Shown here: piece by piece, positions 235 through 16,185 of the stretch
How positions within the stretch are numbered: the first letter of the stretch is position 1
How the letters are laid out: each line of letters starts with the position of its first letter
Source of the DNA: an uncultured archaeon
GTDB lineage: Archaea > Asgardarchaeota > Thorarchaeia > Thorarchaeales > Thorarchaeaceae
Direction of reading: 5' to 3'
Length of the DNA stretch: 32,000 nt
Assembly: GCA_964648855.1 (NCBI GenBank)
Contig: CAZYLT010000002.1
Coordinates: forward strand, 30,001-62,000
The notes under the pieces: generated by a model
What the model was told of the DNA's origin: nothing
What the model saw: the letters and a program-made list of their open reading frames with translations, nothing else
The model's database searches: none
Translations under genes and position numbers: made by a program

Positions 235-480
235 TCCTCTATCTGCACATGCGTCAGAATCCAGCTATCCAAAAACGGCAAGCAGGTGACCGCTTTTATC
301 CCAGGCGACGGCGGCCTCAAGTATATTGACGAACACGACGAGGTCATCATCGAGGGAATCGGTGGAGCCACAGGCGGAGCAATGGGTGATCTGCCGGGTG
401 TCCGGTTCAAAGTGGTGAAGGTAAACGGTGTGGGCTTAGACTCGCTCATCTACGGACGGGCTGAAAAGCCAATCAGGTAG
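235..480 (+). pseudogene. rps12: 5'-truncated 3' part of ribosomal protein uS12 (relic 1)
   Basis: In frame from 250: [76 protein letters not shown], the archaeal uS12 C-terminal half. 235-249 reads SSICT, a degenerate SAIRK. No uS12 N-terminal half upstream within the window. Confidence 0.92.
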
Positions 481-653
481 CCTGGTTATCAATTCAAGTA
501 TTTCATGGCCAGAACAATATGTATGAGCATAAATTCTGTTGTCCGACTATCAGTGTATGAAAAAGTTTCTTGACTGCTTGATAATAGGAGAGTCTCTCTC
601 GCTTCAATATACGAGGAAGTTTAGTTCCCTTAGTAGTTGACATGCATTTGATT

Positions 654-1145
654 TTAACGAGATGTGATGCGTTCTATGATTTTGTGCCCATGGAGTATCA
701 AGCCTAGAAGCGATAGAATACCCCCTGCTATAGTTAAACGGGTATTGAAACCAGTCTTGTCTATTACAATATCCAGCTCGAGATAGTCATCGGTCTTGGC
801 TGTAAAAACAAATGCATAGATATCGGGGGCAGAAATGTCTATCACCTCATTGAAGGATGTCAAATTCTCCTGGACAAGAATCGGTTCAATGATGGAGAGG
901 GACTGGTTCTGCCCCACCGTCTTGTTTGCATCTTCGCCGTAAACAAAGTACAGTGTAAAGCTACCATTTCCGCGCCCGATCTCAAGCTTCACATGAATAT
1001 CCCTATCTGTTGCAAAAATGACTCCGGCCGGGTTTCCCTCTTCCACATGCAGAGTTCTGCTCTCTATGTTCCTTCCGGCAACAATAGATGACAAAAGCGC
1101 AACCAGTCCAATGGTGAGGAGTATTTTTCCAAGTCTTGTGGACAC
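654..1145 (-). CDS. Membrane-anchored hypothetical protein (N- and C-terminal hydrophobic helices), last gene of the ABC operon
   Basis: ORF 654..1187. Likely start GTG at 1145 after a GGAGGTG SD that overlaps the permease end. Two TM segments flank a beta-rich domain. Confidence 0.7.
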   Translation of the reverse strand: MSTRLGKILLTIGLVALLSSIVAGRNIESRTLHVEEGNPAGVIFATDRDIHVKLEIGRGNGSFTLYFVYGEDANKTVGQNQSLSIIEPILVQENLTSFNEVIDISAPDIYAFVFTAKTDDYLELDIVIDKTGFNTRLTIAGGILSLLGLILHGHKIIERITSR

Positions 1146-1149
1146 CCTT

Positions 1150-1929
1150 TCACACCTCCGCTCTTTTGAAGAGATACAGGCTTGCAATGAACAGAGATAT
1201 TGAGAACCCTAATGCTGTAACCAGCCCCAGAAATACATCTCCTGAAGATGCTGCGCCAGGCAGATCCCGGAGGTGTTCTGTCGCCGCCCGTAGTGGATTC
1301 ATAACTGAGAGTAATAGCGGTGACACATCTGGGCTCCCGAGAAAGAGATTCACTATCAACCAAAAACCGATGCCAAAGAGAGATGCAATCGAGAGGCGTT
1401 TGAAGAAGACAGCTATTACTGCACATACTGCCGCCTGAAGTGCAACCGTCACCCACAGGGAAACAAGTGTAAGACTCAACTCGTAAACAGAAGGAAATCC
1501 GGGATATACGGAAACCACGGCAAACAGAAATGCACCTGAGAGCGTCCCAGCTGGTATTAGAATCGCAAACAAAGTTTTGTTCAATAATACTGACGTTCGT
1601 CTGATAGGATAGGTGATTAATGACCTCATGTATCCGTCTTCGAAGGGTTTTGCAATGGAGAGAGCAGCTAGTAAGGGCACTAAGATTGCCAGCCATGATG
1701 AAAAGACTCCCACCCCATAGAAGATTCTACTAGGAATCAATCCATCCAAGATGATGTTGATTCTGTCAATTTGTCCAACCCCAAATGGCATTGCGGTCCA
1801 ACCACCCGTTGTGTTCCAAACGATTACAAAGAAGAAGATGGCAACAAGTCCCTCAAGCATGGGAAACCGATAGGTGATATTGAGTTCAATGCGTGCCAGA
1901 CGAATGACGTTACTCAGTCTGTTCTTCAT
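1150..1929 (-). CDS. ABC-2 type transporter permease
   Basis: About 6 TM helices and motif FEDGYMRSLITYPIRRTSVLLNK typical of ABC-2 permeases. ATGA overlap with the ATPase. Confidence 0.88.
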   Translation of the reverse strand: MKNRLSNVIRLARIELNITYRFPMLEGLVAIFFFVIVWNTTGGWTAMPFGVGQIDRINIILDGLIPSRIFYGVGVFSSWLAILVPLLAALSIAKPFEDGYMRSLITYPIRRTSVLLNKTLFAILIPAGTLSGAFLFAVVSVYPGFPSVYELSLTLVSLWVTVALQAAVCAVIAVFFKRLSIASLFGIGFWLIVNLFLGSPDVSPLLLSVMNPLRAATEHLRDLPGAASSGDVFLGLVTALGFSISLFIASLYLFKRAEV

Positions 1930-2894
1930 GTGATCACATCCCAGAAGGCGTCCTCCAGAGTTGCAGCCCGCTCCATGCTGTATAATTCTACGCTCAACGA
2001 CTGTGCTGTTGCCTGTATCTTGCCACGGACCTTTGTTGAATCACCCGTGACTGTGATTGAGACTGTATTAGGGCCTTGACTTCTCACACTGGTTACGCCT
2101 GTAATCTCCCGTAACTTAGATACTATCTTACTTGAGTCAGAGCACAAGATACGATATCGATTGCCGGTGTGCTTCCTAATGACTTCTAGTGTTTTGCCTT
2201 GCTCGACTATCTTTCCACGATGTATGAAGGCAACATGGGTGCAGGCCTTTTCCAGTTCTGAGAGAATGTGTGATGATATCATAAATGAAACCCCTGATTC
2301 TCTATGCAACTGCACAATCTGGTTCAGAATCTCCTCCCGCCCCGGTACATCCAAATTAGCCGTTGGCTCATCCAAGAAAACCAGTTCTCCATCAGCCGCG
2401 AGGGCGAGAGCAATGCCCATTCGTTGTCGCATCCCTGCTGAGAAGTCACCTATCTTGCGATGGGCAGCATGGCCTAGCCCCACCATGGAGAGCAACCGAT
2501 TAGGATCCTTGTCACTCTCATAGATTCCAATAACTTCAGATAGGTATTGGTGCGCACTCATATGAACAGGTAGGGAAAGATTCTCGTGCAATACGCCGAC
2601 CCGTTTCCGTATCTCCAATGACTTTTTTTGAGCATCAAGGCCGAATACATGAGCCGAGCCAGCAGTTGGTTGGATTAGCCCGAGGAGAATACTGATCAAA
2701 GTGGTTTTTCCTGCTCCATTCGGCCCTATCAATCCAAAGATGCCAGGTTCAATCGCTAGATCCAATCCATCAAGAGCTCTAATGGAACCGAAGTTTTTGA
2801 CAATTCCGTGAATATCTATGAGAATAGTCCCAACCAATGAAGGGTTTTCCTCCTGTTTATCAGTACAAATGAAATCAGTGTCACTCAAATCCAT
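1926..2894 (-). CDS. ABC exporter ATP-binding subunit
   Basis: Walker A GPNGAGKTT, signature FSAGMRQR, Walker B VFLDEPT, H-loop SSH. Confidence 0.95.
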   Translation of the reverse strand: MDLSDTDFICTDKQEENPSLVGTILIDIHGIVKNFGSIRALDGLDLAIEPGIFGLIGPNGAGKTTLISILLGLIQPTAGSAHVFGLDAQKKSLEIRKRVGVLHENLSLPVHMSAHQYLSEVIGIYESDKDPNRLLSMVGLGHAAHRKIGDFSAGMRQRMGIALALAADGELVFLDEPTANLDVPGREEILNQIVQLHRESGVSFMISSHILSELEKACTHVAFIHRGKIVEQGKTLEVIRKHTGNRYRILCSDSSKIVSKLREITGVTSVRSQGPNTVSITVTGDSTKVRGKIQATAQSLSVELYSMERAATLEDAFWDVIT

Positions 2895-2912
2895 GTTACT
2901 TACTCCACGACC

Positions 2913-3467
2913 TCACGGACCTGTTATATGTGCTTCCAAAGTTACATCTCCTACATACCATCCCAAGTAGTAAACAGATACCCTGTACTTTGTATAGACG
3001 TCGTTGTATATATCGTAGTAATAACGATATGTTCCAAGGGACGTCTTTATTTCATCGTATCTAGAATCACCTTGACATCGGAGAGATACAGAGCCCAAAG
3101 TATGACCGGCTATAAGGTCAACATATCCATAGTGTTTCTCTTGATGGAAATAGTTACTGCCTGTTGTATAATATCCCGTCACACTACAATAGAAATACCC
3201 ACTCATTCCACTTGCATCATCGGAATCGAATTTGTTGTCGGCTAATGAGAACTCTTGTGCTGGAATGAACTCAGCATTTATTTCATACAAGAAACTACTG
3301 GGGCCAATGTAATGAGTTTGCGTTATTAGCGATCCATTTACAAGCTGAGCTTCAATAGAAAGCTCAAATTGGTTGTCCTCAGTAATTCTTGTTGAGCCAC
3401 TTAAGTATACAGGAAACACAAATATCGTTAATATGAGAAATGAAAATAGTAGTATTTTGAACCTCAA
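2913..3467 (-). CDS. Secreted Tyr-rich hypothetical protein (paralog of 3616..4182)
   Basis: N-terminal signal/TM peptide. Shares A.F.P..EF...D...D.D..SG.SG.F...VTGYY..G..YF..E.H with the neighbouring gene. Confidence 0.78.
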   Translation of the reverse strand: MRFKILLFSFLILTIFVFPVYLSGSTRITEDNQFELSIEAQLVNGSLITQTHYIGPSSFLYEINAEFIPAQEFSLADNKFDSDDASGMSGYFYCSVTGYYTTGSNYFHQEKHYGYVDLIAGHTLGSVSLRCQGDSRYDEIKTSLGTYRYYYDIYNDVYTKYRVSVYYLGWYVGDVTLEAHITGP

Positions 3468-3615
3468 CTTACTTTCCTCCCAGCATTCTAATTAATGCCT
3501 TAAAAAGGCGTATAGTTGTTTCGCTATATAAATTCACCGAGAGTTTTTGGCTAGACGACAATCAGTAATAGATAAGAAGGGTCATATTGAATGACCCTGT
3601 CCTGTTCGATAGATT

Positions 3616-4182
3616 TCAAGGAGGTTCTACATATGCCAGCAGAAAAATATCTCCAACATAGATGAATCCATAATAGATGTCAGCGCTCATAGTTGTTCGT
3701 GCATAGTCGGTTACTGCGTCATAATAAGTCCAACTGCCCACTTCGTCATATGTATCATCATATTTTCCACTCCTACATCCGACAACGAGATTTGTTGCAC
3801 TATGGCCCGGTGCCAACGACATAACGGCCTCGTGGTATTCCTTGTAAAAGTAATGGTAACCATTTCTATAATAGCCTGTTACAATTACATTGAAGGAACC
3901 TGATGAACCACTTTCTGGATCTTCGTCAGAAGTTGAATCACTAACTATGAATTCTTTATTTGGAGTGAATAGCGCATCCACATAAACTTTGGAAGACTCA
4001 ACTCCCACTGTTTTCAAATTATAATGCATCTTGCCATCATCTATTTTGCAAGAGATAATTATAGAAACTTTCTCAATATGATTATTGCTTTGTACAAAAG
4101 GAAAGACCAAAGATGGCATGATAAAAAAGACAAATACTAGAAGAACTGATTGTTTTTTGGTTAACAGCATCTCTCCCATCAC
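3616..4182 (-). CDS. Secreted Tyr-rich hypothetical protein (paralog of 2913..3467)
   Basis: Signal-like N-terminus, collinear similarity to 2913..3467, AT-rich. Confidence 0.78.
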   Translation of the reverse strand: MMGEMLLTKKQSVLLVFVFFIMPSLVFPFVQSNNHIEKVSIIISCKIDDGKMHYNLKTVGVESSKVYVDALFTPNKEFIVSDSTSDEDPESGSSGSFNVIVTGYYRNGYHYFYKEYHEAVMSLAPGHSATNLVVGCRSGKYDDTYDEVGSWTYYDAVTDYARTTMSADIYYGFIYVGDIFLLAYVEPP

Positions 4183-4848
4183 CTAAACGTGGTTGAAAAC
4201 CACATCACAGTATTCTCCCCCATTATATTTAAACATTTATAGAAATACATTTCCAAATAAAAATTTGATGTAACCTAGATGTGCCGTACAATTGATTAGC
4301 CTTTTTGCATTGTAACAAGACGACATATTCCGACTTTCTTCCAATCTTTATGCTATTAAGAACAAGAGATTGTTAGCAGGTTTTGCTGAATAGCTATGAG
4401 ATAAAATCTCTCAACACCTCTTGACAAGTAATTATATCATAAATATCTCTCATTCTTGGTGGACCTTTATCTTCTGCTCATCAAAAGCAAATCTATTTTC
4501 ATTATACGGTTGATGGTATGACAAAAGGAGAACTCGAATACTTTGAGATACTATCCCTCAATTTACCAACTATGATATCCCTTTGTATCTGGATTATTTT
4601 TTCAATGCATCATAATCTAGGTACTCCAAAGCATATCTATTGACTCAACCTAACTATGCATTTCAGACGTTGAGTTCAATTCCTTTAGAGCTGATATCAA
4701 AGGGGATGATATTCATCGAGTGCATGGGCCCTCGCATCTTGACGATTCTCAACCGCCGTTCTACTGAGCCTTCAATTCTCTCGTACAATAGTTTGATAAT
4801 TTCATGACAGGCACGTTCAAGCTCAGAGGGACTATGCGATGAGATGCG

Positions 4849-5046
4849 AAAAACGGCAAGCAGGTGACTGCTTTCATCCCAGGCGACGGTGGACTAAAGT
4901 ACATAGATGGGCATGATGAAGTCATCATCGAGGGAATCGGTGGAGCAATGGGTGACCTGCCAGGCGTGCGTTTCAAAGTGGTGAAGGTGAACGGCGTCGG
5001 CCTTGAGTCTCTTATCTACGCTAGAGCGGAGAAGCCAATCAGGTAG
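4849..5046 (+). pseudogene. rps12: 5'-truncated 3' part of uS12 (relic 2) with a 12-nt in-frame deletion
   Basis: [65 protein letters not shown]. Homology starts abruptly at 4849. The deletion lies between GGAGC microrepeats. Confidence 0.92.
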
Positions 5047-5073
5047 AAGACCAGATGAATCACAGTTCACCGA

Positions 5074-5379
5074 CTATAGCCTGTCGTAATCTGTTGCGTC
5101 GATGATGATTGCCCGGACAGTGGTTGGCAGGGATTCCTCTGAATCTGGTTGTTGGTACATCATGGAACGTCTTGCCCCACGAGACAGGTAGTCCTCCAGT
5201 TCCTCCTCATTGAATAGGCCCACTTTTACGGCCCGCTTTGTACTACTCTCCTTCAATTTAAGAACCACATTTTCGCCATTCTTTCGCATCTCTTCGACCC
5301 GTCTGACTGCTTCCCGGATCTCTTCCCAGGTTGTATACTCCTTTCCATCAATCGCCTCTTCCACTTTCACTTTGACCAT
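5074..5379 (-). CDS. Small hypothetical protein, TTWEEIRE family (homolog of 14800..15111)
   Basis: 101 aa, aligns over most of its length with 14800..15111. AT-rich TATA-like element about 25-30 nt upstream of the ATG. Confidence 0.82.
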   Translation of the reverse strand: MVKVKVEEAIDGKEYTTWEEIREAVRRVEEMRKNGENVVLKLKESSTKRAVKVGLFNEEELEDYLSRGARRSMMYQQPDSEESLPTTVRAIIIDATDYDRL

Positions 5380-5638
5380 CCTAATCGAGAGTATGAGAAA
5401 GATAATAACTCTCTTTCCCTTTAGTAATCAATTCGCTGGTCCCACAGAAAAAGACCCTGCTAACTAGAGCACATTGAGATCGTATTCTAAAATAATCTGT
5501 AGAAGATACTAAAGCGCGTCGAAAGAATTATTGGTCCCGAAAATTATATCTTATTATCGTTATGAGGATGTGGAATTGGGCGTGATTAAAGATGGCACTC
5601 AGAACGGGCAATGCTCGCTCATTGATGGAGTTGATTGA

Positions 5639-6070
5639 ATGAAGCGAAAAGTGGAAATCTCTGCTGAAGAAATGGAAAAAAGAGCATACGGGTGGCTAGA
5701 GATTTCAGACCTCGGCAAAATACGTCTTCCATCAGAACTCATTCATGACTACAAATTGGAGGTCGGAGAATGGTTTCAAATACAAACAATAAATCAACCC
5801 ATAGGTAAAGCAATCGTTTTGCTTTGGAAAGTCCCAGAAACTGGACCGGGGTCAGAGGTTTATCCATGGGGTGGTTTCCTTTTTCCGGACGAAACTGTGA
5901 TGATACTCCTTCCTTTTATGCTATCACTGAACCTATTTCCGGGCGATAAGCTGCTCGTGATGAAGAAAACTCAAATTGCCGCGATTGATATCATACCGTT
6001 TTGGGCAAGCGGAGTATTCTATGATATTGCCAAAAAATCATCGAATATACCAACGTTTACCTGCCAATGA
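5639..6070 (+). CDS. AbrB/MraZ-like swapped-hairpin DNA-binding protein, probably two repeats
   Basis: YGWLEISDLGKIRLPSELIHDYKLEVGE and a second repeat ..LNLFPGDKLLVMK match the AbrB pattern. Confidence 0.65.
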   Translation: MKRKVEISAEEMEKRAYGWLEISDLGKIRLPSELIHDYKLEVGEWFQIQTINQPIGKAIVLLWKVPETGPGSEVYPWGGFLFPDETVMILLPFMLSLNLFPGDKLLVMKKTQIAAIDIIPFWASGVFYDIAKKSSNIPTFTCQ

Positions 6071-6205
6071 ACGCAGAATACGTGGATGCTAGCACCTTTG
6101 ACAAATTTTCGTTTCCAGTTCATTCCAAAAGCTTTAAACAATGATAGCACCGTGCCGAATTGATACGCTTTGAAATTTAGTACCGAGCTTAACAGTACAT
6201 ATGCG

Positions 6206-6274
6206 GTCGTCAAAACAAACGGCACCACATTAGACTTGTTGATATGCGGCAGAGCCGAGAAGCCAATCAGATAG
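6206..6274 (+). pseudogene. rps12: Degenerate extreme 3' end of uS12 (relic 3), directly abutting rps7
   Basis: [22 protein letters not shown] versus [22 protein letters not shown]. The stop TAG at 6272-6274 overlaps the AGGTG SD of rps7, as in the canonical rps12-rps7 junction. Confidence 0.85.
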
Positions 6275-6283
6275 GTGTTAGAG

Positions 6284-6973
6284 ATGTCAGAAGACGAGAA
6301 GACAGAGGCAGAAACCGAGGTTCCTGAGGAAGAGGATGCCGTTGAGGAAGAGAAAGAACCTGAGAAGCCACATATTCTCCCTGATTTACTATTATTCAAC
6401 AAATGGGACTCTACCGCAGTGGAGTTGAAAGACCCCGGGCTTGTGAGATATATCTCCTTAAAACCCGTGATTATTCCACACACTTCTGGTAGACATGCCC
6501 GAAAACGGTTCCATAAGAGCGATGTTCCCATCGTGGAGCGATTCGTTAACAAACTGTTGAATGCCGGTACTCGGAAAGAGAAGAGGAATCGTGCCGGACG
6601 TAATGCTGGTAAGAAGACAATGATCATCGGTACGTTGAAGCGAGCCTTTGAGATGATTGATTACCGAACAGGACTCAATCCTATCCAAGTACTCGTCACT
6701 GCTATCGAGAATGCTGCTCCAGCAGAGGAGACCACTAGGATATCCTATGGTGGTATGGCTTATCCGCGTTCGGTGGATGTTGCACCGCAGCGAAGGATAG
6801 ACCTAGCACTGAAGTATCTGTCAGTGGCAGCAGCACGAAACTCTCACAAGAGCGCCAAGACTTTTGAGGAGTGCATTGTAGACGAACTACTGCTCGCTTA
6901 CAAGAATGACTCAGGTAGTTTCGCTATCTCCAGAAAGGAAGAGCGCGAGAGAGTGGCACGCTCAGCACGATAA
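6284..6973 (+). CDS. rps7: 30S ribosomal protein uS7, with an acidic N-terminal extension
   Basis: PHTSGRH..RFHKSDVPIVER, NPIQVLVTAIENAAP.EETTRI, VDVAPQRRID, KEERERVARSAR. ATG 6284 is preferred over GTG 6275 by SD spacing. Confidence 0.97.
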   Translation: MSEDEKTEAETEVPEEEDAVEEEKEPEKPHILPDLLLFNKWDSTAVELKDPGLVRYISLKPVIIPHTSGRHARKRFHKSDVPIVERFVNKLLNAGTRKEKRNRAGRNAGKKTMIIGTLKRAFEMIDYRTGLNPIQVLVTAIENAAPAEETTRISYGGMAYPRSVDVAPQRRIDLALKYLSVAAARNSHKSAKTFEECIVDELLLAYKNDSGSFAISRKEERERVARSAR

Positions 6974-6983
6974 TCACAGTTGA

Positions 6984-7002
6984 GCACGGGTATTTCCCGT
7001 GC
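6984..7002 (+). terminator. Hairpin after rps7
   Basis: GCACGGG-tattt-CCCGTGC about 10 nt after the stop. Confidence 0.5.
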
Positions 7003-7119
7003 AATCATAATCTGATTTCTAGTCTATTATCTTAACATACTTTCGATTGTTTATCATAGGGCAAGACGGAGGCAAAAGACGAATAACTATGAACAACTCC
7101 ACGCAGAGCTTGAACTACA

Positions 7120-7656
7120 ATGACTAAACAAGCTCTTATCGCCTATGGAACACGATACGGCTCCACTGCAGAAGTAGCAGAACGCATTGGGGAAGCTCTC
7201 TCCGAAAAAGGTCTGACTGTAACAGTACTCAATACTAAAGAAGAGAGTGCGCCGACAAATCTTATTGATTTTGATCTCGTGATTGTAGGCAGTGGGATCC
7301 TTGCCGGGAGATGGACCAAAGAACCCATTGAGTTTTTGAAAGAAAACAAGAGTGTTCTGGCAGACAAGGATGTTGCTCTCTTTGTAGTATGTGCATATGC
7401 GGCTAATCCAAAAACGCGTGATGACGCCTTCCAGAATTACCTTGTGGATGTTGGAAGGGACCTGGATTCTATTACACCAATCTCTCTAGGATTCTTTGGC
7501 GGAGTCATAGATTTTAGTAAGTACAATTTCGCTGTCAGAGCTCTGATGAAACGGATGGTCAAGTCCACTACGGGCGATGAAGAGGTCTCCGAATTTATGG
7601 ATTTGCGGGACTGGGAGAAAATAGAAAGCTGGGCCAAGTCACTTGTTACAGAATAG
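7120..7656 (+). CDS. Flavodoxin-domain protein (HemG-like)
   Basis: YGTRYGSTAEVAERI FMN-binding loop, DLVIVGSGI, DLRDWEKIESWA. Confidence 0.9.
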   Translation: MTKQALIAYGTRYGSTAEVAERIGEALSEKGLTVTVLNTKEESAPTNLIDFDLVIVGSGILAGRWTKEPIEFLKENKSVLADKDVALFVVCAYAANPKTRDDAFQNYLVDVGRDLDSITPISLGFFGGVIDFSKYNFAVRALMKRMVKSTTGDEEVSEFMDLRDWEKIESWAKSLVTE

Positions 7657-7663
7657 CCAGCCC

Positions 7664-8116
7664 ATGCGGCATTCCAAAGAAACTCTCTTGAAACAATTCA
7701 AGCACAACTCGGATATGCCTGATTATGATCGCCTTGAGCGGGATGCCAAGAAGGATGTGGAAACTGCACTTGATATCTGGTCTGATATTTTACAACATAG
7801 AATCGAGGTCAATGTGCAGTGTACCTAAGCCAAGGGCTCTTGTGTCAAACCATGGGACTCGCCGGCGCCAATTCGGCTCTTGAATCAAACCTCAGACAAT
7901 CCTATTGAAACATGGGCATGGAATCGATCAAGAATCATAGGCGAACTCGAAGCTCAAAATCATCATCAATTAGCCAATCTCTATACTAGGTTCTATATGT
8001 CGTCTTGGACCCTCTTTCTCACCAAGTTCTCGGATCTCCAAGCCTTCAGAGAAGTTGTGCGTAGCGGTTATTACTTGCTACAAAGGTGTATCCAAGAGAT
8101 GAAACAACCCTCTTAA
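7664..8116 (+). pseudogene. Disrupted gene, possibly of nucleotidyltransferase-like fold
   Basis: The frame continues past TAA 7826-7828 as AKGSCVKPWDSP, resembling the hG-S start of minimal nucleotidyltransferases. It then shifts into the helical ORF 7880..8116. Confidence 0.45.
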
Positions 8117-8155
8117 TACAGGAGATGGTGCATCCTCTAGGAACGGAATGGGCAA

Positions 8156-9085
8156 ATGAAAGTCAACAGGAGAGCTTTGGCTTGGCTAGCAATCTTATTT
8201 ACAACGATTGTATGGGCATCATCTTTGATTCTTGCAAAGATTATCTATCCTACAATCACACCTATTCTCTTTGTGGCTCTTCGATATACTCTGGCTCTTC
8301 CATTCCTCTTTCTTCTACTCATCTTCAAGAAAGATGATGTCAAGGTCCCCCAGTCCACCAAATGGAGCGTCATAATAATTGTTGGTCTAGCTGGGCCATT
8401 TCTTTCACAAGTTCTTCAATACATAGGATTGAGTCTGACTTCTGCATCAGAAACTCTGCTCCTCCTAAATCTAAGTCCGGTCTTTGCCGTTATCCTTGCA
8501 GCACCTCTAATTGGCGAAGAAATCACTCTTCAAAAACTGGTTGGGTTGATACTGGCAGTTTCTGGAGCGACTCTTATTGTGATTGGAAATCTTGATTTTC
8601 AGATTGTTAGCTATGGCAGAATACTTGGAGATTTCATTATCGTAGTATCTACTCTTCTTTTTGCTATCAATGGCATTGCTGGAAAGGTCGCAATCAAGAC
8701 CTCCGGTTCGTTATCAGTAACTTTCTACAGCACGCTAGTGGCCGTCCCATTTATCTGGCTGTCTGCATTCTTACTAGAAGACATCACAATCCTATTTTCT
8801 ACTCCCATTTATGTCTGGATTATCATCTTCTGGGTCGCAATTGTGAACACCGTCATCGCATTTCTGTTCTATTACGAGTCCATGAAATACATCGAGGCAT
8901 CAAGAGTCCAGATAGCGTTGAGCCTAATCGCCGTCTGGGGTGTTATCATGTCATCTATCTTTCTTGGAGAATCAATCACCTTTCCACAGATATTTGGAGG
9001 CATTGCAACTATTCTTGGCGTGATAGTAGTCCAGCGCAGAGGACGTCAAGAACAAACCATACGACCTGTCCAACCTCCCTCATGA
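8156..9085 (+). CDS. DMT/EamA family transporter
   Basis: 10 TM helices in two EamA repeats (TIVWAS, ALRY, NLSPVFAVILA..IGE, FLGE). Confidence 0.93.
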   Translation: MKVNRRALAWLAILFTTIVWASSLILAKIIYPTITPILFVALRYTLALPFLFLLLIFKKDDVKVPQSTKWSVIIIVGLAGPFLSQVLQYIGLSLTSASETLLLLNLSPVFAVILAAPLIGEEITLQKLVGLILAVSGATLIVIGNLDFQIVSYGRILGDFIIVVSTLLFAINGIAGKVAIKTSGSLSVTFYSTLVAVPFIWLSAFLLEDITILFSTPIYVWIIIFWVAIVNTVIAFLFYYESMKYIEASRVQIALSLIAVWGVIMSSIFLGESITFPQIFGGIATILGVIVVQRRGRQEQTIRPVQPPS

Positions 9086-9641
9086 GCCTGTTTTTTTCCC
9101 TCTCGGTGGTAACAATTTGTGACCTATTTGCGTGACCCTGAAACGTGGCTTTGCATTATATACTAACCTTGTTCACTATTTCTTAGAAACAAAATGGCTC
9201 TAACATCCAACAACAGAGTTGTACACGAGAAGAAGAACACCACAAGAAAGGTCCAGTCAATTGATGCGCTGACCTATGCATACCAATACACTGTGAGGTG
9301 AAAACAAAAATGGCACTGGCTAAGGAAACCAAAACTAAGTATCCCAAGAAATCCCAATCTACAGAGGCAATCACTCAAGCTTACTTCAGGAGATAGAATC
9401 CAATGATTCGTCACAAGATATTCGCTGATATATCTGAAGAGTTACTCTCTGAATTATCCCACAATGATGACGAATTAGCTGTCGAAGAAGTGCTTGCGTT
9501 GGAAGCAACGTGAGCACATTCCTCCTTTTTCCAACTATCTGTCTAATATCACATATCCAATTTCTTATTGCATAAGTATAATCTTTCTGTGGATATTCGA
9601 CATGCTTATTGAAGGAGTCTAGTAAGAACAGATCGAATCCA

Positions 9642-10388
9642 ATGAAAATTGAGTCAATTAGATGCCTCATCTTCGATATTGGAGGCACTATAAACGGTCC
9701 ACGTTTTGATGGAGTTGACTTTCTACGCTATTTCTTAAAAGAGGCTGACTTGAGAAAAGCAAGCAATCTGCCTGCACACAGACTTAGAGCGGCACAAGAG
9801 AAAGCATCGTCTTGGCTAAATGATTACATGATTGAGAATAATGTTCCCCCAAAGTGGGAGATGATATTCCCTAAAAAGATTCGTTATTCCGGTATCATTT
9901 TGGAATCGTTGCGGATTGAAGAGCCCCCTGAACGCCTTGCTAGCGCATATGATAGGAAGCTGGAGTTTGCAGTAGAGGAGATTGGGGCGGTCATGGCAGA
10001 GAACTGCAAGAGCGTATTAGAAACCCTCTCTACTCGTGGTTATCATCTTGGAATCGCCTCAAACAGATTTGGTGACCCGTCCGGCTATTTCAGACGCCAT
10101 AGCCTAGAATCGTTCTTTGAAGTTATTCAGTATTCCTTGGTACCTGGCTATCGAAAACCCTCACCCTATATGCTACTTGAAGTGGCTGAAGAACTGTCAA
10201 TCAATCCTTTGAAATGTGCTTATGTCGGCGACACAATCAAGTATGACATCAAAGCCACAAAACGGGCGGGAATGCTACCCATTCTTACCACTGAATTTCA
10301 GCAGTCTTCTGACGGCTTCTATTCTGATGAATGGTTGACGGTTTCAAACCTCTCTGATTTGATTACAATCTTCCAATCGGGAAAATAG
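9642..10388 (+). CDS. HAD-superfamily hydrolase
   Basis: Motif I FDIGGTI, motif II IASN, motif III KPSP, motif IV YVGDTIKYD. Confidence 0.88.
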   Translation: MKIESIRCLIFDIGGTINGPRFDGVDFLRYFLKEADLRKASNLPAHRLRAAQEKASSWLNDYMIENNVPPKWEMIFPKKIRYSGIILESLRIEEPPERLASAYDRKLEFAVEEIGAVMAENCKSVLETLSTRGYHLGIASNRFGDPSGYFRRHSLESFFEVIQYSLVPGYRKPSPYMLLEVAEELSINPLKCAYVGDTIKYDIKATKRAGMLPILTTEFQQSSDGFYSDEWLTVSNLSDLITIFQSGK

Positions 10389-10679
10389 AGGGCCCAATCA
10401 CGAAACCGACCGTGGTGGCTGTGCTCTACGTGTCGCCACGTAGACCATGTCAGAGTCAGTAATCAGGCCCAGTAGCATACTGCTTCTTGTTTGATAAATG
10501 TACGTTCTGGTCGAATTGAATCGTCTTTGCGCATTTTCTTCTGGAAGTGGGGGGGTGACAACACGCAATCTCCATTCATAACACCCGCAAAGAAGTGCTT
10601 GGCGGATACAGAAGCAATTCTTTTCCTCTAGTGCGCCTATGCCCCTCCTATAAGCCATTTGGCTAAACGAACCTGTCGA

Positions 10680-10742
10680 AATTATTAAAAGCATCGCACA
10701 ACGTGGCTTCAAAAAGCCTTGACCACTCCTAGTGGTCAGGCC
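10680..10742 (+). promoter_or_regulatory. Putative tuf promoter and 5'-UTR hairpin
   Basis: ATTATTAAAA at 10681, followed by stem GCCT-TGACCACT cct AGTGGTCA-GGC before the TTG start. Confidence 0.4.
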
Positions 10743-10766
10743 TTCATAAAAACGTGGTGAATTAGA

Positions 10767-12083
10767 TTGAGTAAGAAAGATAAAGAACACCTCAATCTGG
10801 TCGTCATAGGGCACGTCGACCACGGTAAAAGCACTATGACGGGCAGATTGTTGTACGAGACAGGTGCAGTAGACGAGAGGACATTCCAAGCACACAAGGC
10901 TGAAGCTGAGAAACTTGGTCGTCCATCCTGGGCTTGGGCGTTCGCCCTTGACAGGCTTAAAGAAGAACGAGAGCGCGGTCTAACCATTGACATTGCGTTC
11001 TTCAAATTCTTGACTGACAAGTACTACTACACCATTATTGACGCTCCTGGACACAAAGACTTCATTAAGAACATGATTACTGGAGCATCGCAGGCTGACG
11101 TAGCTCTGCTTGTTGTTTCAGCCAAGAAGGGAGAATTTGAGGCTGGAATCGGCCCTGGCGGCCAGACCAAAGAACATGCTTACCTTGCAAAGACACTCGG
11201 TGTCGATAACCTGATTGTGTGTATCAACAAGATGGACGACGAGAGCGTTGATTACAGTGAAGATCGTTACAAAGAGGTCAAGGAAGAGGTAATGGGCTTC
11301 CTGAAGAACATCGGATTCAAGACAGATCAAGTGGAATTCATTCCCACTTCAGCTCTATCCGCTGCTAACCTCAAAGAACAAACTCCTGACTTGACTCCAT
11401 GGTACGAAGGAATCAGCCTTCTTGAGGCCCTGGACACTGTTGAGCTTCCTCCGAAGCCCATCGACAAACCACTGCGAATACCCATCAATGACGTCTACTC
11501 TATCAAGGGCGTTGGTACTGTTCCAGTTGGTCGTGTCGAAACTGGTGTCTTGAAGCCTGGAATGAAAGTCACATTCATGCCTCCCAATAAGACCGGTGAG
11601 GTCAAGACGGTTGAGATGCATCACGAGATGCTCGATGAGGCTGTACCTGGTGACAACATAGGCTTCAATGTGCGCGGAGTTGAACGGAAAGATCTTGGTC
11701 GCGGAGACGTTGCCGGACCTACTGACCAACCACCCACAGTCGCAGCAGACTACACGGGTCAAATCATGGTCATTCAGCATCCGACCGCTATCACTGTTGG
11801 TTACACACCGGTCATTCACGCTCACACTGCCCAGATAGCATGCAGGTTCGACGAGCTCCTGCAGAAGCTGGACCAGAGAACCGGTCAAGTCACACAGGAG
11901 AACCCTGACTTCGTGAAGCGCGGAGAGAGCATGATAGCAAAGCTAGTCCCTCTCAAGCCGATGGTGATAGAGCCGTACAAGGAACTCCCACAGCTCGGAC
12001 GCTTTGCGGTCCGGGATATGGGTATGACCGTCGCAGTCGGTGTCGTGACAAAAGTTACACCTCGCGAACCAAGCAAGAAATAG
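10767..12083 (+). CDS. tuf: Translation elongation factor EF-1 alpha (intact)
   Basis: [55 protein letters not shown]. Confidence 0.99.
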   Translation: MSKKDKEHLNLVVIGHVDHGKSTMTGRLLYETGAVDERTFQAHKAEAEKLGRPSWAWAFALDRLKEERERGLTIDIAFFKFLTDKYYYTIIDAPGHKDFIKNMITGASQADVALLVVSAKKGEFEAGIGPGGQTKEHAYLAKTLGVDNLIVCINKMDDESVDYSEDRYKEVKEEVMGFLKNIGFKTDQVEFIPTSALSAANLKEQTPDLTPWYEGISLLEALDTVELPPKPIDKPLRIPINDVYSIKGVGTVPVGRVETGVLKPGMKVTFMPPNKTGEVKTVEMHHEMLDEAVPGDNIGFNVRGVERKDLGRGDVAGPTDQPPTVAADYTGQIMVIQHPTAITVGYTPVIHAHTAQIACRFDELLQKLDQRTGQVTQENPDFVKRGESMIAKLVPLKPMVIEPYKELPQLGRFAVRDMGMTVAVGVVTKVTPREPSKK

Positions 12084-12100
12084 TATAGTAGATGTAATTT

Positions 12101-12133
12101 GGGTCCATGAAGTGGACCCCTATCTATTTTTTT
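12101..12133 (+). terminator. tuf terminator (hairpin plus T-tract)
   Basis: GGGTCCA-tgaag-TGGACCC followed by TATCTATTTTTTT. Confidence 0.65.
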
Positions 12134-12552
12134 AATCATATTCCAGAAGTACAATGTTGAATCTACAAACTCAAAATGGATAGGAGAAATAGTTACTAGC
12201 TCGACAACTCGGAAATATGCCGACAAGGACACCTTGCTAAATTTCACTGAGAAGATTCTAGGACTTGAATTCCTTCTATAATATTTGTTAGCAATCCCTC
12301 TCAATAGTATTTCTACATTGTATTCCACATATAAGACATCTCTAGTAAACGGCTCTGTAGAAAAAGTCCGCGGGGTTGGAGTAGAGAAGACTGAAATAGC
12401 CATTGAATCGACACTCGAACCTCATATTCTGACATTTCAAGATTATGACAAGACCCGATTTAGCATGTCGATGTGAATTATTCTACAGAGCCCTAGTAAA
12501 CTACATATAGAAAGGGTTTCCAATGGACTATTGATTCTAAGACTAGTTGTGA

Positions 12553-13137
12553 TTGGAGGAAAAAAGGATGCTACTTCAAGAATCAGTTATTGGTCTTGGG
12601 CCTGGTATTGCAATCATACTTCTCATTGTAGTAATTTTCCTATTGATAGTGCATTCAAAGAAATCCAAGCCTTCATCTGACTATGATTTAAAATCTGAAC
12701 GTTGGCTCAAAGAGGAATCTCCACTCACAACATCACATAAGACTGAATTAATCGAAGCAGTGCATATTGCACTGATGTTTCTGTTAACAATCCCCTTCTA
12801 TCTGTATGGTGGGAACATCCTTTATGGTTATATTCTCTTCTTATTACCCGATGAGCTTGTAGCTCTTGTAGTGCGAGCTGCCCTTTCAGTCCTAATTGTC
12901 GAGTTCTTTTTCAATTGGATTCCGTATCTGGTTTTTCATTTCAAACGATGGAGAACAAAAGGATTGTATATTCTCTTTTCGGGGATTTCCTTTGCAAGTC
13001 TAACATACTTCGTTCTGTCTCCCCAATACTTCGAGGGAGAGGCATTCATCGGAATGGGATTTATTTGGATTATCTGTGGTATCATTATACATCTTCTTTT
13101 CAATAGGATAGGATGGTACAACAAGAAGTCTAAATAA
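12553..13137 (+). CDS. Hypothetical membrane protein, about 5 TM helices (cargo)
   Basis: Multiple hydrophobic helices, AT-rich. Start may be ATG 12568. Confidence 0.75.
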   Translation: MEEKRMLLQESVIGLGPGIAIILLIVVIFLLIVHSKKSKPSSDYDLKSERWLKEESPLTTSHKTELIEAVHIALMFLLTIPFYLYGGNILYGYILFLLPDELVALVVRAALSVLIVEFFFNWIPYLVFHFKRWRTKGLYILFSGISFASLTYFVLSPQYFEGEAFIGMGFIWIICGIIIHLLFNRIGWYNKKSK

Positions 13138-13275
13138 TAGGAGTGCCAAACCTTGCTTCTCAAGGTCCTCTCAAGATTCAAGCCGCTTTGACAGTCTGAT
13201 TATCAAATACGAGTTTAAATAGAAAACTCCAATCTATACGTTTGAAATCCATAATTCGTAGGAGATGATACACAA

Positions 13276-13791
13276 ATGACGGACTGTAACGATTGGGTTC
13301 CAACTGCGTGGTCAGTGAGTAGGACTAATGTCACAGACACCTCTTTAGTAGTCAGCCAGACTTTGTACTGGAGTTCCACAAAAATGGAAACCCTTCAGGA
13401 GATGGGCGGTTTCTATCTGTACGAAATCCGCAGAAATGCAGATTACTGGGATTTCCTTCAACCTGGAGCTCTTTGTATATATTGTTTTATAGAAATTTCC
13501 ACTAACTTCCCAAATCCAGACCCTATCACATTTACGGAGGAAGAAGGTGCTGCAATTTCTGCTTGCTGTCTTCGCCTGCCAGATGATGAAGAAGCACAAG
13601 TGAATGTGCCTATTGATCAAATGGAATCAGGATACTATTATGCAAGTTTGAAGATGATTCGTCTTGAAAAGGACAAGCAATTCACCCTGTGGAGTGAATC
13701 AGAGTGGTGTTGTTCGTGGCTTTGGTGCAACTTTGGATCTCCGGATTGTTTCCAATCATGTACCATGACTACACAGACATTCACATCATAG
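13276..13791 (+). CDS. Cys/Trp-rich hypothetical protein (cargo)
   Basis: SD GGAGATGA, TATA-like TTTAAAT upstream, 10 Cys including CC pairs and a C-terminal cluster. Confidence 0.78.
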   Translation: MTDCNDWVPTAWSVSRTNVTDTSLVVSQTLYWSSTKMETLQEMGGFYLYEIRRNADYWDFLQPGALCIYCFIEISTNFPNPDPITFTEEEGAAISACCLRLPDDEEAQVNVPIDQMESGYYYASLKMIRLEKDKQFTLWSESEWCCSWLWCNFGSPDCFQSCTMTTQTFTS

Positions 13792-13804
13792 GAGGAGATA
13801 ATTT

Positions 13805-14470
13805 ATGAATAAGAAGATAGGTTCAATAGAGAAGGTTACAGAGGATTTGCAAAGACACGGGCGAGCAGCAATGGAAACTGACAAGGAAATTCTGAGGTTT
13901 GCTCGTGCACGTGACAACTATGTCCAAGTGACTTCCCGGATATATCCCAAGTCTATTTCTGAGCTTGAACAATATAGAACAACCTCACTGAAGCGCCTCG
14001 CTTCCTTGCCAGGAGGGTATCGACGGCATCATGCAGCTATCACTCTGAAAAAGATGATGCCTATGACTCGTGTAGATGAAATACAATCTACGGCTGGATT
14101 GGACGTATTCGGGATAAAAATCCAAGGCACACACGGTTTTATCACTATGTCCAAGTATCCAATAGACGTTTCTTGGATTACTGAAGCCGAAGAGGTGACG
14201 AGGAAAAACATGATTGAAACAGAAACCCTTGAAGAAGGAGAACGATTTTCCCTTATAGAGGGAGTGGTCGCTGTATACGTCAATGCAACACATGATGCAT
14301 TAGAAAAACTACTAGATGAGGATGACATATATCTAATAGATGTAGGGCCTCAAGAACACATGGATAACCTGGCGGTAGTATCTGCAGGTACAGAACATGA
14401 ATGGAAACCAGTATTGGGGCCACTGTTGGATATAGCTCATTACATCAATAAGCATTCAAATACTGAATAA
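13805..14470 (+). CDS. Hypothetical protein co-transcribed with 13276..13791 (cargo)
   Basis: AGGAGGAG SD at the upstream stop. 221-aa globular-looking ORF. Confidence 0.78.
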   Translation: MNKKIGSIEKVTEDLQRHGRAAMETDKEILRFARARDNYVQVTSRIYPKSISELEQYRTTSLKRLASLPGGYRRHHAAITLKKMMPMTRVDEIQSTAGLDVFGIKIQGTHGFITMSKYPIDVSWITEAEEVTRKNMIETETLEEGERFSLIEGVVAVYVNATHDALEKLLDEDDIYLIDVGPQEHMDNLAVVSAGTEHEWKPVLGPLLDIAHYINKHSNTE

Positions 14471-14562
14471 TGAATCAAATTTCGGCAATTCCCTGCTATT
14501 TTCATACAGATGAAATCTAGAGTTTTGTGAATTGATAGGATATACCAAAATCATCACACATC

Positions 14563-14661
14563 CTCCCACAGTTGGGTCGCTTCGCAGTTCGTGACATGGG
14601 AATGACAGTAGCAGTTGGCGTTGTCACAAAGGTCACTCCTCGTGAGCCAGGCAAGAAATAA
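14563..14661 (+). pseudogene. tuf: EF-1alpha 3'-end relic A (last 32 codons)
   Basis: [32 protein letters not shown]. Not in the ORF track. Followed by hairpin GGGGC-cagagt-GCCCC and a T-rich tract. Confidence 0.93.
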
Positions 14662-14799
14662 ATCACATTGGGGCCAGAGTGCCCCTCTATCCTCTTTTCA
14701 TTTTCTGCATAATTCTGATTCAACAACTCATATGTATGTACTCACGGTAGGTACAGTCATCAGTGGCATGTGAGCACAATAGGGATTTCTCGACCTTGA

Positions 14800-15111
14800 T
14801 CACGGCTGTAAATCAAGAAACTTGGTACTGGCAATTCGTGCCTCGATTTCGGTGGGTAGTGGTGTTTCAGGGTCATCAGGATTGCGTTTCATACTTCTTC
14901 TGCTTATACCATTCAACCAATCCTGCAATTCCTTCTCATTCAGGATATTGGTGATAATTGCCCGTTTTGAGCTCTTCTCTCCCAACCTGAGCATTACTTC
15001 TTCTCCCTGCTCCCGCCTTTGCTCTACTTCAGCAAGCATCTCGCGTATCTCCTCCCATGTGGTAGCAGTTTCAGAGAAGAACCAGTCCTCATATTCAGGG
15101 TCGTTAAGCAT
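14800..15111 (-). CDS. Small hypothetical protein, TTWEEIRE family (homolog of 5074..5379)
   Basis: TTWEEIRE..VE..R..GE.V.L.L.E.S.KRA......NE.EL.D.L....RRSM....PD..E..LPT...A.I is shared with 5074..5379. Confidence 0.82.
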   Translation of the reverse strand: MLNDPEYEDWFFSETATTWEEIREMLAEVEQRREQGEEVMLRLGEKSSKRAIITNILNEKELQDWLNGISRRSMKRNPDDPETPLPTEIEARIASTKFLDLQP

Positions 15112-15160
15112 CTTGCTATATCATTCACGCTCCGGCTAGATAAACATAACCTATCCGATT

Positions 15161-15567
15161 GAGTCGAACGGAAAAATCTTGGTCGCGGAGACGTGGCTGG
15201 TCCGACCGATAAGCCGCCTACCGTCGCTGCTGATTACACGGGCCAGATCATGGTCATCCAGCATCCAACGGCAATAACCGTGGGATACACTCCCGTTATC
15301 CATGCTCATACAGCCCAGATTGCATGCAGGTTCGATGAGCTTCTACAAAAGCTTGACCAGCGGACTGGTCAGGTCACACAGGAGAACCCTGACTTCGTGA
15401 AGCGCGGAGAGAGCATGATAGCAAAGCTAGTCCCTCTCAAGCCGATGGTGATAGAGCCGTACAAGGAGCTCCCGCAGCTCGGGCGCTTTGCTGTCCGTGA
15501 CATGGGGATGACCGTCGCAGTCGGTGTTGTGACGAAAGTTACACCTCGCGAACCAAGCAAGAAATAG
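15161..15567 (+). pseudogene. tuf: EF-1alpha 3'-end relic B (407 nt, matches 11677-12083)
   Basis: Gap-free alignment with only two amino-acid changes (D>N, Q>K). Followed by its own hairpin and T-rich terminator at 15584-15623. Confidence 0.95.
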
Positions 15568-16185
15568 TTTAACTCATAGTACCAGAACCGGGTCCAAACG
15601 GCCCGCGTTCTATTCTTATTTTATATCACACATTGATTGCCTCACACTGAGAAATAGAAAATCCATAAGAAATCAGTTCCATGTATAACTTGAGAGAAGC
15701 AGGTAGTTGGGCATATATCTAGTGGTCCTATACGGTGGGGTTGTCTTATTGACGCTGTACTTGAGCCGTGATAAGAGAGTGAAGCACTCCACAGATCACT
15801 CATTTGAAATGGAACAAATGGGGCAAGATGCATTAGAAAAGAAGGCAAGTTATTTGTAGGAATATATTGATGCTACAAGAAAATTACACCATGACTAATT
15901 CTTGGTTAACCAGAAAGGCTCTGAACCTTACTCAGCAATCAATCTCTAAAATGTTGTATAATTCCGGTATCTGTTTATGACATGTCAACTCTACTACAAA
16001 TCTCTCTCAGCTACCTTTAGTTTATGTTCTCCCATCTCTAGACCACTAACTTGAAGAATATACTCGGATATAGGAACTCTACTAGTCTGCGATTTGCGGG
16101 ATTGTACGGTATTGTCCAATCCCGGTGTTCATAGTCAATTCGAAGGAATATTATTCGCATATCAGCATCCAATATGTGACCACTG

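Follow-up and report, generated by a model that had tools for sequence, protein, structure and literature searches.

Two essential translation genes of a Thorarchaeota genome, rps12 and tuf, are each followed by a row of displaced 3' ends of the same gene, with accessory genes lying between the ends. Here, we describe these arrays, the origin of the displaced ends and the possible mechanisms by which they form. The arrays act like rhs C-terminal displacement and like insertion with long target duplication; they do not act like an integron. The cell's own recombination probably captures the cargo, because no integrase was found in the genome: host homologous recombination would anchor incoming DNA, the far end would join illegitimately, and modules would later be swapped between the repeats. 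Such arrays are a concrete route by which Asgard archaea may gain and exchange accessory genes, with conserved translation genes as cross-species anchors and with surface, secreted and export proteins as cargo.

The genome analysed (G000) is metagenome-assembled, in 62 contigs, with a completeness of 94.6% and a contamination of 4.75%. The window is the whole stretch of 32,000 nt that was analysed, C2:30001-62000; positions marked C2 follow the numbering of the contig. We refer to rps12 ends as r and to tuf ends as t. The other genomes compared keep their labels (G001, G075, G012, G095, G096, L002, L044, L046, L069 and L072).

Structure of the arrays

The rps12 array consists of one live and four displaced 3' ends across 19.6 kb, and the tuf array of the live gene and two displaced 3' ends (Table 1). 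All copies listed in the original prediction are present, as direct repeats on the + strand, and the arrays are larger than it had claimed. The full-length rps12 that it expected upstream is the sole one in the genome, at C2 16705-17148, 13 kb upstream of the window; the first relic, which it had placed at 235, begins at ~250. The rps12 relics start at gene nt ~187, 214, 233-235 and ~376, and the tuf relics at gene nt 1219 and 911. The repeats are 69–407 nt long and ~78–87% identical, and the inserts between them measure 0.5–6.5 kb. Chance matches are excluded, because blastn E-values are low (1e-55 to 1e-142 for the long relics; 6e-16 for the 99-nt t2) and because the 69-nt r5, weak alone at an E-value of 0.002, was found again in four other assemblies. 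For both genes, the most distal relic occupies the ancestral position.

Table 1. Parts of the two arrays, by position in the window unless marked C2.
Feature	Position	Strand	Remarks
rps12 relic r2	C2 23537-23794		upstream of window
rps12 relic r3	250..480	+	third of five ends; gene nt 214 to stop
87-nt non-coding element	520..606	+	96.6% identical to C2 17188-17274; gene X, normally downstream, lost here
cargo block 3	654..4182	-	177-aa membrane protein, ABC-2 permease, ABC ATPase, two secreted proteins
45-nt piece of cargo-2-type ABC ATPase gene	4802..4846	-	95.6% identical to C2 28722-28766
rps12 relic r4	4847..5046	+	gene nt 233 to stop; 12-nt deletion
gene X copy c	5074..5379	-	101 aa
orphan cargo gene	5639..6070	+	143 aa; 99.3% identical to L044 copy
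94-nt block preceding r5	6112..6205	+	kept in all alleles, 95.7-98.7% conserved
rps12 relic r5	6206..6274	+	ancestral 3' end, decayed; abuts rps7
rps7	6275..6973	+
live tuf (EF-1alpha)	10767..12083	+	followed by hairpin 12101-12119
tuf cargo	12553..14470	+	194-, 171- and 221-aa genes
tuf relic t2	14563..14661	+	gene nt 1219 to stop; own hairpin 14670-14685
gene X copy d	14800..15111	-	103 aa
tuf relic t3	15161..15567	+	ancestral end; gene nt 911 to stop

The cargo consists of secreted proteins, ABC-2 exporters and orphans; no restriction-modification gene was seen. It had been described as AT-richer, and this holds in part: three of the six blocks fall below the 5th percentile of the genome (cargo GC 39.7–45.1%; genome mean 44.7%, sd 1.3, in 5-kb windows). 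The cargo proteins tested had no PHROG or NCBIfam match, and the AbrB-like regulator proposed among them gained no support from Pfam, PHROG or NCBIfam. The two secreted proteins of cargo block 3 (184 and 188 aa) are paralogues.

Several junctions are informative. The 45-nt ABC ATPase piece joins r4 directly, bluntly, within coding sequence and with no microhomology seen; it is an illegitimate joint, though it may stem from a secondary deletion. The r4 region is collinear with the live 3' end, gene X, the 143-aa gene and rps7 of L044. Upstream of the 94-nt block, the cargo varies among alleles. The block itself contains a BRE/TATA-like stretch and is a putative substitute promoter for rps7; rps12 abuts rps7 at the other loci examined, G075 excepted. 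At the far end of the tuf array, t3 is followed by the native trailer, which matches the live-tuf trailers of other genera, and by a hairpin (15589-15605).

Origin of the displaced ends

By their codon changes, the relic ends are foreign orthologous alleles rather than decayed local duplicates, because these changes are nearly all synonymous (synonymous/non-synonymous counts of 32/4, 30/2 for r3, 21/3, 20/1 for t2, and 48/2). Local tandem duplication of a gene end, followed by decay and by unrelated insertions between the copies, is very improbable and is largely refuted by the synonymous excess. It would fit r5, which is decayed (eight synonymous and seven non-synonymous changes), and the short identical tracts between live gene and relic; genome-specific tracts of this kind measure 95 nt in G000 (t3 and live tuf) and 92 nt in G001. 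However, relics are closer to live alleles of other species than to their own gene: compared with the live ends of G001 and of their own genome, r2 reaches 97.8% and 84.9% identity, respectively, and t2 95% and 78%. The identity of r3 to live rps12 is 85%.

Between G001 and L044, live tuf diverges by 3.4% before nt 911 and by 16.7% after it (permutation p 0.002). Live rps12 alleles switch after nt 101, 131, 155, 158, 167 or 269, several of these positions lying upstream of every relic start. Judged from these comparisons, live rps12 and tuf are mosaics with replaced 3' parts. At its core, the original proposal holds, with the qualifications given below: 3' alleles of foreign origin take the place of the live end and displace old ends and cargo downstream, with no detectable integrase or fixed att core.

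Comparison of cargo among relatives, which had been suggested as a check, showed that same-genus genomes carry different cargo or an empty site. Empty-site and alternative alleles were found in L044, G001, L069 and L072; modules 1–3 are absent from L044, which is an empty-site allele. Cargo 2 genes are 95.4–99.8% identical between G000 and G001, which are different species, against 83–90% for most neighbouring core genes. The tuf cargo trio is missing from G001 and L044 and is present at an unrelated site in GCA_964631415.1. The junction between gene X and t3 is common to G000, G001 and L044, and the 5' junction of r3 is identical in another strain, L069.

These recurrences bear on the possibility that the arrays are an assembly chimera, several strains having been joined via conserved gene ends. 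The genome is metagenome-assembled and contaminated to the extent given above, a G001-like strain co-occurs, unitigs break inside relics, such that module order rests on the assembler, and depth is uneven in run X4. Nonetheless, we give a chimera very little credence. Cargo-relic junctions lie within single unitigs, and those of r3, r5 and t3 were found again in independent assemblies. Read depth over modules 1–3 equals that of the flank upstream of them in each of three runs at 20x–200x (from one study, possibly of the source samples, and covering neither the tuf array nor r5). Moreover, joining intact strains cannot yield truncated ends with foreign 5' flanks. None of the four outcomes that the original prediction had named against itself appeared in the assemblies and read depths compared.

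Related arrays at other genes

A tail array of this type also follows the 23S rRNA gene of G000, and its cargo belongs to the same families: homologues of the membrane protein, permease and ATPase of cargo block 3 are found in 23S-tail arrays. Such arrays are frequent across the family. In eight relatives, 50 23S tails begin at 39 start positions, with at most three tails per position. The same layout is seen in G000 at a pair of accessory genes encoding an amidinotransferase and TauE, a locus with no counterpart in G001. Translation genes had been proposed as the anchors, but the 23S rRNA and the two accessory genes show that the process is not confined to genes for translation proteins. The connection with the 23S-tail arrays suggests a single process at work throughout the family and not an accident at one locus.

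Arrays at protein genes are narrowly distributed, in one genus and one further genome (400 Asgard genomes were searched for rps12). That further genome, G075, has an independent rps12 relic whose start, at nt 379, lies about 3 nt from that of r5; its opening 14-nt stretch matches the live rps12 of G075 exactly. Second rps12 matches in G041 proved to be two full genes, and those in G379, G381 and G382 short inserts; none are relics. Our literature searches, in which most subscription journals were outside coverage, returned no paper that describes arrays of this kind in Asgard archaea, whether at rps12, at tuf or at the tails of 23S.

Searches for recombinases

The original prediction of no integrase or recombinase in the window was borne out, and extends to the genome: searches for tyrosine and serine recombinases (PF00589, PF16795, PF00239 and PF07508) gave no match in G000, at its completeness of 94.6%, and positive controls matched. 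G001 likewise has no recombinase family match. A helper element may still have been present in the past. Across the family, 29 of 86 genomes have a tyrosine recombinase of some kind, and none was detectable in the other 57.

The arrays might nevertheless be decayed site-specific elements, i.e., integrase-bearing plasmids or viruses that entered at att sites in rps12 and tuf and accreted in the manner of CIMEs. Such elements would have brought long replacement ends and lost their mobility genes, and later deletions would have trimmed the relics to varied lengths. There is precedent: e14 leaves icdC (PMC13626634), and ICEs, IMEs and CIMEs stack in tandem at rpsI, rpmG, rplL and fda (PMC7563491). 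Moreover, the r5 and G075 relic starts nearly coincide, the G075 relic and t2 begin with 14 and 9 identical nt, respectively, the rps12 relics shorten with distance, as erosion would give, the tuf allele switch coincides with the t3 start, and recombinases do occur in the family. We consider this origin unlikely all the same. Neither G000 nor G001 has a recombinase match, the cargo tested has no match in PHROG or NCBIfam, and no intact element was seen in any allele. The rps12 switches are scattered, and some lie further upstream than any relic start; the 23S tails begin at 39 positions, and the genomes with the largest 23S arrays (G012, G095 and G096) have no PF00589 match. Finally, the elements preceding r5 and the G075 relic show no significant similarity to each other, since 209 of 2,000 shuffles score as high.

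Gene X and small elements

Gene X is specific to Thorarchaeota and has four copies in G000, all beside rps12 or tuf ends. It belongs to no Pfam, PHROG or NCBIfam family. Its predicted structure (pLDDT 74; best VIA-align Z 5.2) had no Foldseek match at E<=0.001, and an ESM Atlas feature search was blank. A role as recombinase or excisionase is thus unsupported by the family searches, and the model gives no fold assignment either way. Further X loci were sought in metagenomes and none were found, in a search from which near-identical records may have been withheld; candidate P0023 was rejected as a repeat artefact. Homologues of the 87-nt element sit upstream of X in L002 and L046. As structured RNAs, this element and the block upstream of r5 scored z-values of −0.3 to +1.5 with no Rfam match, nor did Rfam match anything else in the arrays. 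A sigma-70 promoter scan was set aside as unsuited to archaea.

An alternative that we think improbable is a dedicated, integrase-free Asgard cassette system whose enzyme, of host or mobile origin, is of no known recombinase family. Such a system would make cassette circles and integrate them at the tails of 23S rRNA, rps12 and tuf, any of which could receive modules from a common pool of secreted proteins and exporters; gene X or the 87-nt element might be part of it. The arrays are indeed co-oriented, share one cargo pool between rps12 and 23S, are frequent family-wide at 23S, and account for all four X copies. However, X homologues in another genus lie at ordinary chromosomal sites (e.g., adjoining TFB), neither the 23S arrays of G000 nor the module of G075 contains X, the junctions have no common motif, and the 87-nt element has no stable structure.

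Relation to known systems

In integrons and integrase-less attC clusters, too, gene modules stand in a row, can be swapped and are added at one end. The arrays described here differ in that neither G000 nor G001 has a match to IntI (PF00589), the joints are variable-length gene tails rather than attC hairpins, and the modules hold several genes on either strand. The label "integron-like" was overstated: the folding and Rfam searches gave no attC-type site, a dedicated enzyme was likewise not found, and other precedents exist for the layout (PMC2935791; PMC5361080; PMC2853133).

The first is rhs C-terminal displacement (Jackson et al. 2009, PMC2935791), together with the T6SS effector-immunity arrays of Vibrio cholerae (Kirchberger et al. 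2017, PMC5361080). There too, displaced 3' ends of differing lengths line up behind an intact gene, the newest nearest to it, and no integrase is present; the layout is explained by single crossover of a circle or by homology-facilitated illegitimate recombination and subsequent spread by homologous recombination. In those arrays, however, a polymorphic toxin gene with a variable tip and an immunity gene serves as the anchor, and the novelty under selection is the new tip. Here, the anchors are essential translation genes with conserved tips and nearly unchanged proteins, the novelty is unrelated downstream cargo whose pool also uses 23S rRNA, and the host is an archaeon.

The second is insertion with long target duplication (Nobusato et al. 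2000), as far as it is summarized by Furuta et al. (2010, PMC2853133). By that summary, an insert of <20 kb lies between long, variable direct repeats (>30 bp), often spanning the stop codon, with no mobility genes and with an empty-site allele in relatives. The inserts described there are restriction-modification genes between near-identical repeats (e.g., 44–47 of 46–47 bp); those of the present arrays lie between longer repeats that are foreign alleles, stacked up to four deep.

Third, site-specific elements with replacement gene ends, such as e14/icdC (PMC13626634) and ICE/IME/CIME tandems (PMC7563491), also restore a coding gene with the incoming 3' end, displace the old end, stack in tandem and include cargo-only members. 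They depend on an integrase of the tyrosine or serine type and on a fixed att site, and here neither was found; the starts within one target gene vary, although erosion could explain part of this variation.

Possible mechanism

We favor capture by host homologous recombination. DNA of a related Thorarchaeote, comprising the conserved gene, its 3' end, a terminator and accessory genes, would pair with the resident gene, and a crossover inside that gene would be made by RadA, which is present in G000. The allele switches at variable positions inside live genes are consistent with such a homologous anchor on one side. The far, non-homologous end would then join illegitimately. A joint in the resident gene tail would leave the old tail downstream as a relic of arbitrary length; a joint further down would delete older cargo and leave no relic. 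Among the far-side joints, one is resolved, the blunt and possibly secondary one at r4. Alternatively, an illegitimately circularised fragment could enter by one crossover and give the same product. No joint of the kind that an excised circle would leave was found in the contigs, from which rare variants are lost; the one joint listed there was the 45-nt ABC repeat. Either way, the live gene ends up with a foreign, functional 3' allele, as the comparison of genomes shows, and once tails flank the modules, homologous recombination between tails would very probably swap, remove and refresh them within and between species. The genome-specific identical tracts of live gene and relic also fit this reading. 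Site choice would presumably be set by survival: tuf and 23S each have a terminator behind their end, and rps12 may have become usable once a first insert had supplied a promoter for rps7.

Several observations weaken this reading. DprA, the one uptake protein searched for, has no match in G000 or G001, which counts against it as regards the route of DNA entry. No donor-recipient pair was found for a single primary event. Relics begin at distinct codons, as originally claimed, but this alone does not prove separate primary events, since later deletion can spread the starts, possibly at r4. The near-coincident G075 and r5 starts and the 14- and 9-nt identities resemble att cores. Lastly, relics are limited to very few genes, though many others are equally conserved.

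The arrays also matter for phylogenomics. The essential markers rps12 and tuf exchange their 3' parts with alleles that are 17–23% divergent, and truncated marker copies can inflate marker counts in genome bins.

Layout and soundness of the arrays

Every displaced 3' end ("relic") of rps12 and tuf named in the original prediction was found again in the sequence, and the upstream flank holds, as anticipated, a full-length rps12 ahead of the array, together with one additional rps12 relic. The rps12 relics (r2-r5) start at gene nt ~187, 214, 233-235 and ~376, and the tuf relics at nt 1219 (t2) and 911 (t3), with a separate hairpin behind every tuf end. The intervening cargo, described as AT-richer, is AT-rich, but only mildly so.

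Coordinates and make-up of the arrays and other features in the source genome (C2 is the contig holding the window, at 30001-62000; X is a ~100-aa Thorarchaeota protein)
Feature	Position	Content
Live rps12	C2 16705-17148	sole full rps12
rps12 array		live rps12, X, cargo 1, r2, X, cargo 2, r3, cargo 3, r4, X, 143-aa orphan, r5, rps7
Cargo 1	between live rps12/X and r2	S8 peptidase, beta-propeller protein
Cargo 2	between r2/X and r3	beta-propeller protein, ABC-2 exporter, membrane and secreted proteins
110-nt repeat	window 4673-4783	just upstream of r4 junction; also on C11 and twice on C21
r4	window 4847-5046	
r5	window 6206-6274	adjoins rps7
rps7 to tuf	window 6974-10766	variable accessory genes (flavodoxin, just 67% identical to relatives; EamA; HAD); EF-2 gene absent; part also at C19
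tuf array		live tuf, three orphans, t2, X, t3
t3	window 15161-15567	
SRP RNA gene, archaeal	window 19700-20010, minus strand	
Amidinotransferase/TauE relics (L084)	C1 412118-423026	amidinotransferase-family and TauE genes whose nested 3' relics lie 7-10 kb downstream, with WD40 and bactofilin-like genes enclosed
Spare 23S rRNA tails	C40 1-7202 (L088); C24 27236-27369; C47 6624-6761	ABC-exporter and secreted-protein cargo
220-aa ORF	C40 277-939	lies in the 23S rRNA gene region and may be intron-encoded
rpoA2 5' duplication (L083)	C2 9018-14797	first ~88 codons in two copies flanking a 1418-aa ORF
tRNA-Gly 3' end	C21 12238-12284, 22141-22187	duplicated around a 1538-aa ORF
tRNA-Asn 5' region	C2 128715-128791, 132325-132401	duplicated

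The source genome is a 3.11-Mb bin of 62 contigs (94.6% complete), and the order of the modules (gene blocks between successive rps12 ends) depends on short-read assembly. In three read runs from one study, which may be the source samples, modules 1-3 have depth similar to that of the upstream flank (20x to 200x), and cargo-to-relic junctions fall within single unitigs; depth in a fourth run is uneven, as expected of a different strain mix. The r3, r5 and t3 junctions recur in other assemblies, an independent support. The observation is real, and the arrays are not an assembly artefact.

Displaced ends and replaced ends

Judged by their sequences, the relics were the ends of working genes before being displaced. 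Relative to the live gene, their synonymous/non-synonymous codon changes number 32/4, 30/2, 21/3, 20/1 and 48/2, r5 being the sole decayed relic (8/7). The r2 relic is 97.8% identical to the live rps12 end of another species of the genus (genome G001), versus 84.9% to the gene of its own genome; t2 is 95% identical to the live tuf end of G001, versus 78% to its own. In both arrays, the most distal relic is evidently the ancestral end, since r5 occupies exactly the place beside rps7 where rps12 lies in the other Thorarchaeota loci examined, and the t3 trailer matches those of live tuf in other genera.

The live genes carry foreign 3' alleles. Between the tuf genes of G001 and of a same-genus relative (locus L044), divergence rises from 3.4% to 16.7% at nt 911 (range 898-918; permutation p 0.002), which is where t3 starts. 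For pairs of rps12 genes, divergence jumps from 0-6% to 17-23% after nt 101, 131, 155, 158, 167 or 269. Because several of these switches precede all the relic starts, the donors in those cases contained a longer part of the gene than is left in any relic; we infer that they were chromosomal DNA, not a mini-element with one att site. Exchange also runs from repeat to repeat: live tuf and t3 share a long identical tract that is each genome's own (95 nt in the source genome, 92 nt in G001), a sign that the repeats are still recombining with one another.

Cargo among relatives

Cargo at rps12 and tuf varies among relatives, as expected. L044 (live rps12, X, 143-aa gene, r5, rps7) is an empty site for modules 1-3, and in G001 the order is live rps12, X, cargo 2, r5, rps7. 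Cross-species transfer has been recent; cargo-2 genes are 95.4-99.8% identical between the source genome and G001, and most nearby core genes 83-90%. At L069, another same-genus locus, an r3-type relic has the identical junction but different cargo. Junctions and modules travel together. The tuf cargo is not alike in the source genome, G001 and L044; a further genome has the gene trio of the source genome at a site unrelated to tuf.

All four copies of X in the source genome adjoin an rps12 or tuf end. X is confined to Thorarchaeota in the searches run, and distant homologues are located at ordinary sites. We read it as early cargo hitchhiking beside the tail; a part in capture is conceivable.

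Recombinases and the r4 joint

As in the window, no integrase was found across the genome: profiles of four recombinase families (PF00589, PF16795, PF00239, PF07508) gave no match in the source genome (controls positive), nor did PF00589 and PF07508 in G001. RadA was found in the source genome. The cargo proteins tested had no PHROG or NCBIfam match. Of the 86 Thorarchaeota genomes searched, 57, some near-complete, lack a PF00589 match and so a recognisable XerA.

At the one junction resolved, r4 is joined without microhomology to 45 nt from the interior of a cargo-2-type ABC gene, and this joint is illegitimate. It could nonetheless have formed later, when an r3-type junction suffered a deletion; relic starts do differ, as claimed, but are therefore weaker evidence than assumed, that of r4 being possibly secondary.

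Distribution

Among 400 Asgard genomes, an rps12 C-terminus search, which overlooks relics as short and decayed as the r5 of G001, found rps12 relics in this genus and in just one other genome, G075. There, rps12 is separated from a 23-codon relic, which adjoins rps7, by genes for a methyltransferase and a glycosyltransferase (L047/L048, on C86 and C237 of G075), an independent module. The main rival explanation, that the arrays are decayed site-specific elements, is improbable, and keeps some weight because the r5 and G075 relics start only about 3 nt apart and the G075 relic has a 14-nt identical start.

Among 86 genomes of the family, tuf relics were found only in this genus. Across the source genome, coding 3' relics are found only at rps12, tuf and the nested amidinotransferase/TauE pair, all co-oriented and downstream. 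The same scan found spare 23S rRNA tails on three contigs. Such tail arrays, with ABC-exporter and secreted-protein cargo, are common in the family and present in many Thorarchaeota genera; 50 tails in 8 genomes have 39 start positions from -193 to +54 relative to each genome's own live gene (at most 3 per position; read from the ends of blast alignments, the starts may be off by a few bases). Families of rps12 cargo reappear in 23S-tail arrays, and three have homologues within the source genome only in rps12 and 23S arrays. Because of this sharing, the protein-gene arrays seem to be one offshoot of a broader process in Thorarchaeota.

Possible mechanism and known systems

The first joint would be illegitimate, formed on a linear fragment or as a fragment circularises; the sequence would fit both alike. 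Few genes would tolerate such insertion. All alleles retain a 94-nt block upstream of r5 that includes a BRE/TATA-like stretch, although whatever precedes this block varies, consistent with a putative substitute rps7 promoter that would have freed the rps12 end.

The arrays work like rhs C-terminal displacement (PMC2935791), Vibrio T6SS arrays (PMC5361080) and insertion with long target duplication (PMC2853133). On the features tested, they do not belong with integrons, integrase-driven e14/icdC (PMC13626634) or integrase-driven streptococcal CIME tandems (PMC7563491). Literature searches, with subscription journals mostly outside their reach, found no paper on such Asgard arrays at rps12, tuf or 23S tails; new here are essential archaeal translation genes as anchors, the stacking depth and a cargo pool common to rRNA-tail arrays.

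Other duplications and inserts

The rpoA2 locus, in the same operon, is a mirror image (5' duplication); its 1418-aa ORF has no Pfam, PHROG or NCBIfam match, and rpoA2 is uninterrupted in G001 and L044. The tRNA-Gly and tRNA-Asn duplications sit in a genome without an integrase match. In three genomes of another Asgard family (G381, G379, G382; loci L074, L075, L076), rps12 contains, near codon 118, a self-complementary insert of 26-33 nt with a stop or frameshift, a possible tRNA-type mini-intron.
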